From a virus (lineage: Duplodnaviria; Heunggongvirae; Uroviricota; Caudoviricetes): a DNA stretch of 19,021 nt. Shown here piece after piece: positions 9,467-10,338 of the stretch. The stretch's first letter is position 1. Each line of letters begins with the position of its first letter. The notes under the pieces were generated by a model that worked only from the letters and a program-made list of their open reading frames with translations, was not told the origin of the DNA and did not search any database. Made by a program: the position numbers and the translations under genes. The stretch lies in the IMG/VR virus record IMGVR_UViG_2529292882_000013; one strand, given 5' to 3'.

Positions 9467-10338
9467 ATGAATCCGTCTGATGCCATTGAGGCAATTGAAA
9501 AACCGCTCTCCTCCCTGCCTTACTCACTTTCCCGTCACATCCTGGAACATCTGCGCAAACTCACCAGTCACGAACCCGTGCCTGGCATTATGGGTAAAAG
9601 CGGGCCCGTAAATCCTCACTCTGTAATGCGCTGTTTCAGGGGGAGGTCACCCCGGTCAGTGATGTTCACGCCGGCACCCGGGAAGTGCAGCGCTTCCGTC
9701 TGAATGGCCATGGTCACAGCATGGTTATCACTGACCTGCCCGGGGTGGGCGAGAGTCGGGACAGGGATGCAGAGTATGAAGCCCTGTACCGTGACATTCT
9801 GCTCGAACTGGACCTGGTACTGTGGCTGATTAAAGCCGATGACCGTGCCCTGTCTGTGGATGAGTATTTCTGGCGACACATCCTGCACCGGGGACATCAG
9901 CGGGTACTGTTTGTGGTGATGCAGGCCGATAAAACGGAGCCCTGCCATGAATGGGATATGGCCGGTATTCAGCCTTCTCCCGCAGAGGCACAGAACATTC
10001 GCGAAAAAACGGAGGCGGTATTCCGTCTGTTCCGGCCCGTACATCGGGTTGTTGCCGTATCGGCCCGCACCGGCTGGGAACTGGATACGCTGGTCAGTGC
10101 GCTCATGACAGCACTTCCCGACCATGCCGCCAGTCCCCTGATGACCCGCCTGCAGGACGAGCTGCGCACGGAGTCTGTCCGGTCTCAGGCCCGTGAACAG
10201 TTTACCGGTGCGGTGGACCGGATATTTGACACGGCGGAGAGCGTCTGCATTGCCTCTGTTGCACGCACGGTTCTGCGCGCCGTCCGTGACTCTGTGGTCT
10301 CTGTTGCCCGCGCGGTATGGAACTGGATTTTCTTCTGA
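9467..10338 (+). pseudogene. YeeP/YfjP/YkfA-family prophage GTPase, disrupted by a frameshift inside the P-loop
   Basis: The frame from 9467 reads ...VPGIMGKSG then leaves the family sequence and stops at 9701-9703. The alternative frame, open from 9598, reads KSSLCNALFQGEV...ITDLPGVGE...WNWIFF to 10338. The frameshift maps to about 9602..9612 (gggcccgtaaat). Confidence 0.7.

Follow-up and report, generated by a model that had tools for sequence, protein, structure and literature searches.

A Walker A Frameshift in a YeeP-Type GTPase Gene of an Escherichia coli Genomic Island

The Locus and Its Surroundings

The window, by which we mean the whole stretch of DNA analysed here (19,021 nucleotides, IMG/VR virus record IMGVR_UViG_2529292882_000013, assigned to the Caudoviricetes), joins a piece of prophage to a piece of genomic island. 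Positions 1 to 8230 are the early end of a Mu/D108-like transposable prophage, which lies on the minus strand and shows about 95% identity to phage D108, and the island that follows contains a frameshifted GTPase gene, three cargo genes and several further island genes downstream:

1960 to 2484, minus strand, Gam of the Mu/D108-like prophage
3988 to 4926, minus strand, MuB of the same prophage
4964 to 6952, minus strand, MuA of the same prophage
7367 to 7891, plus strand, c-type repressor of the same prophage
9467 to 10338, plus strand, frameshifted GTPase gene
10574 to 14939, cargo genes for a dynamin-family protein (798 aa), a YjcZ/RdcB-like protein (301 aa) and a patatin-like phospholipase (356 aa)
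16405 to 17226, DUF932 gene, downstream island gene
17318 to 17803, antirestriction gene, downstream island gene
17804 to 18295, RadC gene, downstream island gene

Base 1 of D108 aligns to window position 8230, and a single bp separates the phage end (...GTGAATCAATACA) from the GTG start (8232) of a 383-aa island ORF downstream. This ORF has consequently lost its native upstream region. The prophage/island junction itself (8230/8231) was found in no complete E. coli genome of the collection, in all of which the island match begins at 8231. The intergenic DNA that separates the GTPase pseudogene from the dynamin-family gene contains a perfect tandem repeat of 18 bp (ATCGATCGTTACTATCAT, 2.6 copies, 10457 to 10503), overlapped by weak promoter-like and terminator-like matches. 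One unit fewer is present in the other strains aligned (9/9), so the repeat of the window is a private expansion.

The three cargo genes follow each other with overlapping stop and start codons. The best NCBIfam match of the dynamin-family protein is CrfC/YjdA (556 bits against a cut-off of 1146), and the cargo resembles the chromosomal yjdA-yjcZ pair, as if an island-borne paralogue of it had been joined to a phospholipase. The matches obtained for these genes from PADLOC are all weak (LeoBC and a phospholipase effector). The GTPase gene is intact in strain A27, where ISEc22 interrupts the dynamin gene. Farther downstream, the DUF932, antirestriction, RadC/YeeS, YeeT and CbeA genes give the locus the context of a CP4-type island, which adjoins the eut locus in the strains examined. 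Both cbeA and cbtA are annotated in the identical island of strains NCTC9088 and M3. In these two strains, where the island is otherwise that of the window, cbtA, which encodes the toxin of the CbtA/CbeA pair (19677 to 20050, just past the right end of the window), is also annotated as frameshifted, so that the same island copy has at least two pseudogenes.

A GTPase Gene Divided between Two Reading Frames

The YfjP/YkfA/YeeP family consists of small Era/Der/MnmE-like GTPases encoded in CP4-type islands of E. coli. Intact members form one continuous ORF of about 287-290 codons, a trait that the gene of the window has lost, its coding sequence being distributed as follows:

9467 to 10338, plus strand, whole frameshifted YeeP/YfjP-type GTPase pseudogene, 872 bp against 873 bp in intact alleles
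9467 to 9703, plus strand, upstream frame of 78 codons: residues 1-46 are native through the G-K-S-G of Walker A, followed by 32 out-of-frame residues and TGA
9593 to 9615, plus strand, coding remains of Walker A (G1), GGT AAA AGC GGG CCC GTA AAT CC
9602 to 9608, plus strand, lesion, GGGCCCG in place of GGGGCCGG
9610 to 10338, plus strand, downstream frame, -1 relative to the ATG: native residues 49-290, with DLPG (G3) and the native stop codon
9685 to 10338, plus strand, candidate restart ORF from GTG, 217 aa, without P-loop, the only one possible in the downstream frame

Translation from the ATG at 9467 (MNPSDAIEAIEKPLSSLPYSLSRHILEHLRKLTSHEPVPGIMGKSGPVNPHSVMRCFR...) proceeds as MNPSDAIEAIEKPLSSLPYSLSRHILEHLRKLTSHEPVPGIMGKSG, continues with unrelated residues (PVNPHSVMRCFRGR...) and ends at the TGA of 9701-9703 after 78 aa. 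On the other hand, the frame of position 9469, which is -1 with respect to the ATG, is closed by a TAA at 9595-9597 and is open beyond it (KRARKSSLCNALFQGEVTPVSD...) down to the TGA of 10336-10338; read from 9598, it gives KRARKSSLCNALFQGEVTPVSDVHAGTREV... with no intervening stop. It is this -1 frame that carries the protein after the break (KSSLCNALF...) through 10338, and its sole start codon after the break is the GTG at 9685, already beyond the P-loop. The two joined pieces show 100% protein identity to the intact 290-aa allele except at the lesion (for the downstream frame, 9610 to 10338, 100% identity to the intact allele of strain 98210), and the frame break is therefore not a chance arrangement of ORFs. 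In this regard, the original prediction, made from the letters alone, was right about the span of the gene and about a switch of frame at about 9602-9612, which we can now place at the base level in 9602-9608, and translation bears out its description of an upstream frame that reads GIMGKSG and then nonsense.

The identity proposed for the gene, a YeeP-like island GTPase, is likewise borne out by 95.9% DNA identity to the yeeP remnant of K-12 over the shared part, by a Pfam match to MMR_HSR1 (PF01926; 52.1 bits, cut-off 21.9) of the 290-aa translation repaired by hand (joined as GKSGPGKS), and by the CP4-type context. Similarity to YeeP, YkfA and YfjP runs over the whole length, and the protein of the joined frames is 94% identical to the EDL933 allele and 49-51% identical to YkfA and YfjP. 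The gene of the window is thus a member of the family by descent, without functional membership.

The Lesion in the Walker A Motif

In intact alleles the Walker A codons are GGT AAA AGC GGG GCC GGT AAA TCC, which encode GKSGAGKS. As references for the lesion we used the intact 873-bp genes of strains A27, 98210 and GN03139, which come from the same island, together with the EDL933 allele. Alignment to them indicates a 1-bp deletion plus a G>C substitution, which turned AAAAGC GGGG CC GG TAAATCC into AAAAGC GGG CCC G TAAATCC (in a longer context, AAAAGCGGGGCCGGTAAATCC in intact alleles and AAAAGCGGGCCCGTAAATCC in the window). Two alignments score equally, one with the missing G inside the G run and the other with it immediately ahead of the T. 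The original prediction, for which a single-base indel would account for the break, was therefore correct as to the deletion and incomplete as to the adjacent substitution. YkfA, YfjP and the EDL933 allele all keep the Walker A motif.

The codons struck are 46-48 (GGG GCC GGT), that is, the Gly-Ala-Gly of GKSGAGKS, and the Walker A motif is in this way split in two: in the window, translation in the ATG frame gives GKSGPVNPHS, and of the motif the other frame retains no more than the K-S. No in-frame GxxxxGK[ST], the Walker A/G1 signature of P-loop GTPases, is left in the gene. The G domain is otherwise present, with its G3 element (DxxG) as DLPG at residues 90-93, in the -1 frame only. Depending on its position, restoration of one base would give GKSGARKS, in which the motif Gly becomes Arg, or GKSGPGKS, in which Ala becomes Pro and the consensus is kept. 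Together with C9601, the lesion forms a perfect 8-bp palindrome, CGGGCCCG. From the allele alignments and the translations, the claim of a frameshift inactivation inside the P-loop was well founded.

Distribution of the Broken Allele

A 41-mer centred on the lesion, which is unable to seed on intact alleles, was found exactly in 213 of 5,426 complete E. coli genomes (about 4%), always in the chromosome. Moreover, a 1,001-bp query matched with 100% identity in at least 20 complete genomes, from isolates of mouse, pig, cattle, chicken, human, frog, seawater and river origin. A 24-mer of the lesion was also detected in five metagenome contigs; it had no match in a scan of one representative genome per species, which fits a minority allele within E. 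coli. Intact 873-bp genes occur between the same neighbours in strains A27, 98210 and GN03139, and a 42-mer of the intact P-loop has 8,581 matching places, spread over 4,056 genomes. Roughly 500 genomes carry the intact allele of this same island, in the band of at least 99% identity to the query. The two components of the lesion were also searched for separately with synthetic sequences: the substitution-only 42-mer was absent from the 5,426 genomes and the deletion-only 41-mer occurred in just one, strain B-2207. This copy was discarded as an intermediate, since it sits in a different Ag43 island amid other frameshifted genes.

The same DNA had already been noticed by the annotation pipelines. 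RefSeq/PGAP pseudogenes in NCTC9088 (EL094_RS08715) and M3 (RG55_RS20980) are 100% identical in DNA over positions 9400-10400 of the window, and the label given by PGAP, 'GTPase family protein, frameshifted', agrees with the window in start, end and frameshift call (the NCTC9088 locus 10068-10939 corresponds to 9467-10338). The gene is identical and the surroundings differ, as the window has the Mu/D108-like prophage ending at 8230 and the extra 18-bp repeat unit (10457-10474). In short, the lesion is reproducible across assemblies, intact orthologues are found at the same locus and a recoding signal is absent, as in a pseudogene.

History and Decay of the Allele

The island context is the same in the nine carriers sampled (9/9), with the gene for the 383-aa hypothetical protein upstream and the dynamin-family gene downstream, except that IS elements replace the upstream neighbour in strain 510016 and an IS66-family insertion the downstream one in 2013C-4225. 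Positions 8232-11000 of the window were aligned for SNPs in seven of the 213 carriers and three intact strains. Apart from the lesion, strains 2011C-4315, ST130 and USMARC-51688 have the haplotype of intact 98210 with between one and four private SNPs, and four more derived SNPs (8555, 9433, 9756 and 10293) unite the window with NCTC9088 and M3; the two that fall within the gene are synonymous. The most economical interpretation of these seven aligned carriers would be a single origin of the lesion on a 98210-like island haplotype, of which the intact form is still present, followed by diversification. Outside the lesion, those two synonymous changes are all that distinguishes the body of the pseudogene from the intact 98210 allele, so there is no independent sequence signature of relaxed constraint; the gene was inactivated recently, or the time elapsed has been too short.

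Later decay of carriers is seen in the form of SNPs, a gene-conversion patch and IS66 insertions. In strain 510016 the 5′ end of the pseudogene has been lost to IS elements (IS66 truncation), and in 2013C-4225 an ISCro1 element is inserted just 3′ of the lesion. In strain EC10, about 20 clustered paralogue-like SNPs occupy the equivalent of 9724-10248, the 3′ two-thirds of the pseudogene, several of them in common with the EDL933 or GN03139 alleles; judging from this pattern, the patch looks like the product of gene conversion from one island paralogue to another, in a gene that was already inactive, with the frame left unrepaired.

Two replacements of conserved residues are found in all alleles of this island, intact or broken, and both therefore predate the frameshift. 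The first is Met152 (9919-9921), which is Thr in EDL933 and Ser in YkfA and YfjP, in a stretch conserved as [ST]Q[AS]DK that is a possible equivalent of G4. The second is Arg194 (10045-10047), at the place of a Pro (PVHPV) conserved in EDL933, YkfA and YfjP.

The Family and Its Relatives

Intact P-loops are found at about 88% of the places matching the gene (8,581/9,754), and Nei-Gojobori dN/dS is 0.17-0.19 (about 0.18) for divergent paralogues and 0.31-0.41 when close yeeP-type alleles are compared. The prevalence of intact P-loops and the low ratio between paralogues indicate that the family is normally maintained and functional in general. As judged from these sequence comparisons, the family is under purifying selection when intact, and the allele of the window is one lineage-specific loss. 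The original prediction also stated that the equivalent gene is a pseudogene in some K-12 islands, which is correct (K-12 yeeP is a 5′-truncated gene of 426 bp), and raised the possibility that the family is recurrently inactivated. Recurrence is weakly suggested by that truncation and by the IS damage in carriers, against which stand the 8,581 intact places and the dN/dS of about 0.18.

K-12 yeeP (b1999), a pseudogene of the CP4-44 cryptic prophage, is of the same orthologue group and island position class and is inactivated as well, but in another manner: it is a remnant without the 5′ part (K-12 strains match query positions 387-942 only), whereas the gene of the window has its full length and is broken by an internal frameshift. 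Downstream of K-12 yeeP come isrC and flu (Ag43), in contrast with the dynamin-family, RdcB-like and patatin-like genes found here. The putative GTP-binding proteins YkfA (CP4-6) and YfjP (CP4-57) of K-12 belong to the same family with the same architecture at 49-51% protein identity, and share with the gene of the window the segments GIMGKxGxGKSSLCNALF and DLPGVGES and the C-terminal VVSVARAVW tail. Unlike it, they are intact paralogues under purifying selection (dN/dS 0.17), and they sit directly upstream of the DUF932 genes yafZ and yfjQ.

At a larger distance, the G domain of intact alleles matches models and solved structures of the TRAFAC GTPases Era, Der (EngA) and MnmE with E values from 1e-6 to 1e-13 (about 1e-6 for the intact 98210 allele against the PDB structures of Der, Era and MnmE). 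The NCBIfam equivalog scores of this allele are far below the cut-offs (48.6 against 237 for Era), and the intact island GTPase, unlike those proteins, has no KH domain, no second G domain and no N-terminal domain of MnmE. A C-terminal region of roughly 100 aa is peculiar to the YfjP/YkfA/YeeP family in this comparison. Membership in a defence system was considered and rejected, as the PADLOC matches are weak, partial and restricted to the G domain (LeoBC, E = 7e-8). Our literature search found no published function for the family, and YeeP, YkfA and YfjP are mentioned there only as a neutral integration site, in connection with a yeeP-isrC intergenic mutation and in genome lists.

A Probable Fixed Loss of Function and Its Alternatives

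Altogether, we consider it very likely that this is a genuine, fixed loss-of-function pseudogene of a YeeP-type GTPase, produced by a compound Walker A lesion that arose once and spread with the island. The compound mutation in codons 46-48, from GGGGCCGG to GGGCCCG, shifts the frame within the Walker A loop (GKSGAGKS), so that translation from the ATG at 9467 yields a 78-aa peptide without a complete P-loop, and the remaining 242 native codons are readable only in the -1 frame, where no usable start precedes the GTG at 9685. Once the Gly-Lys-Ser of the P-loop is gone, GTP would no longer be bound and the gene would be dead; from the established biochemistry of P-loop NTPases, GTP binding and function are presumably lost, and the broken gene probably expresses no useful product. 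The mutation would have arisen a single time, on an island haplotype that still circulates in its intact form, and since then the island would have brought the allele, by inheritance or by spread, to about 4% of complete E. coli genomes, in which it is still decaying.

A first alternative, which we find improbable, is that the broken gene is still useful, through either the 78-aa N-terminal peptide or the P-loop-less 217-aa fragment started at the GTG of 9685. Possible targets of such a product would be intact paralogues, for instance, or the membrane, reached by way of the conserved hydrophobic C-terminus. The downstream frame is indeed fully open and identical to the intact protein, the allele is common (213 genomes) and many carriers have other intact paralogues (one to four places per record, three in M3). 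An open frame is nevertheless what a young pseudogene with two later synonymous changes should show, and the 15 nt preceding the GTG (GCCGGCACCCGGGAA) contain no ribosome-binding site obvious by eye. Furthermore, some carriers have lost the 5′ part or suffered an IS insertion right after the lesion, and the gene conversion in EC10 left the frame unrestored, a pattern that fits neutral decay.

Even less credible is that the GTPase would be restored in some cells by programmed recoding or phase variation, be it a -1 frameshift, transcriptional slippage or a reversible change of run length. The shift required is of the -1 type, and the stops at 9595-9597 (-1 frame) and 9701-9703 (0 frame) leave a permissive stretch of about 100 nt, but no canonical slippery heptamer (X XXY YYZ) exists within 9467-9703, no homopolymer of five or more bases is present at the lesion and a P-loop-like product would need the shift to occur within 9598-9609, giving GKSGARKS, with the motif Gly lost, or GKSGPGKS according to its position. 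The spectrum of run lengths expected of a contingency locus is absent as well, since the 5,426 genomes contain 213 exact copies, one deletion-only copy elsewhere and no substitution-only copy. An Rfam scan of the whole window gave no match.

Finally, an error of sequencing or assembly at the GGGCCC stretch of a truly intact gene, which the original prediction had left open, can be virtually dismissed: the lesion does touch short G and C runs, a weak spot of some sequencing platforms, and the deletion-only copy of B-2207, lying amid frameshifted genes, may be such an error, but the runs at the lesion are merely of 3-4 bases, its substitution component is no homopolymer-length error and the identical compound change is shared by the five metagenome contigs and by 213 complete genomes, sequenced in many laboratories from isolates of many hosts and countries.

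Within the preferred reading of a loss-of-function pseudogene, a more speculative proposal, to which we give a small chance, is that either the deletion and the G>C were a single mutational event or the allele persists through a mild advantage. In its first form, a templated or strand-switch mutation may have converted CGGGGCCGG into the perfect palindrome CGGGCCCG, consistent with the finding of no half-lesion on this island in 5,426 genomes. The textbook correction of a hairpin (quasi-palindrome) was worked out by hand on the intact sequence and rejected as its source: perfecting the imperfect repeat centred on GG|CC would give GGGGCCCC or ACCGGCCGGT instead of the observed CGGGCCCG, and for this reason a one-step templated origin stays speculative. 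In its second form, loss of the GTPase, or retention of its P-loop-less C-terminal fragment, may be mildly favourable in lineages that carry the dynamin/RdcB-like/patatin island.

Significance

The pseudogene was already known, annotated as such by RefSeq/PGAP, and is an ordinary, presumably dead gene. For annotation, the consequence is that the pseudogene call is correct and an assembly artefact is excluded. For the biology of E. coli, it means that one accessory-island GTPase is dispensable in a sizeable minority of the species. Moreover, a clean natural null allele, accompanied by isogenic-like intact alleles on the same island, offers a usable probe of the role of the YeeP/YfjP family.
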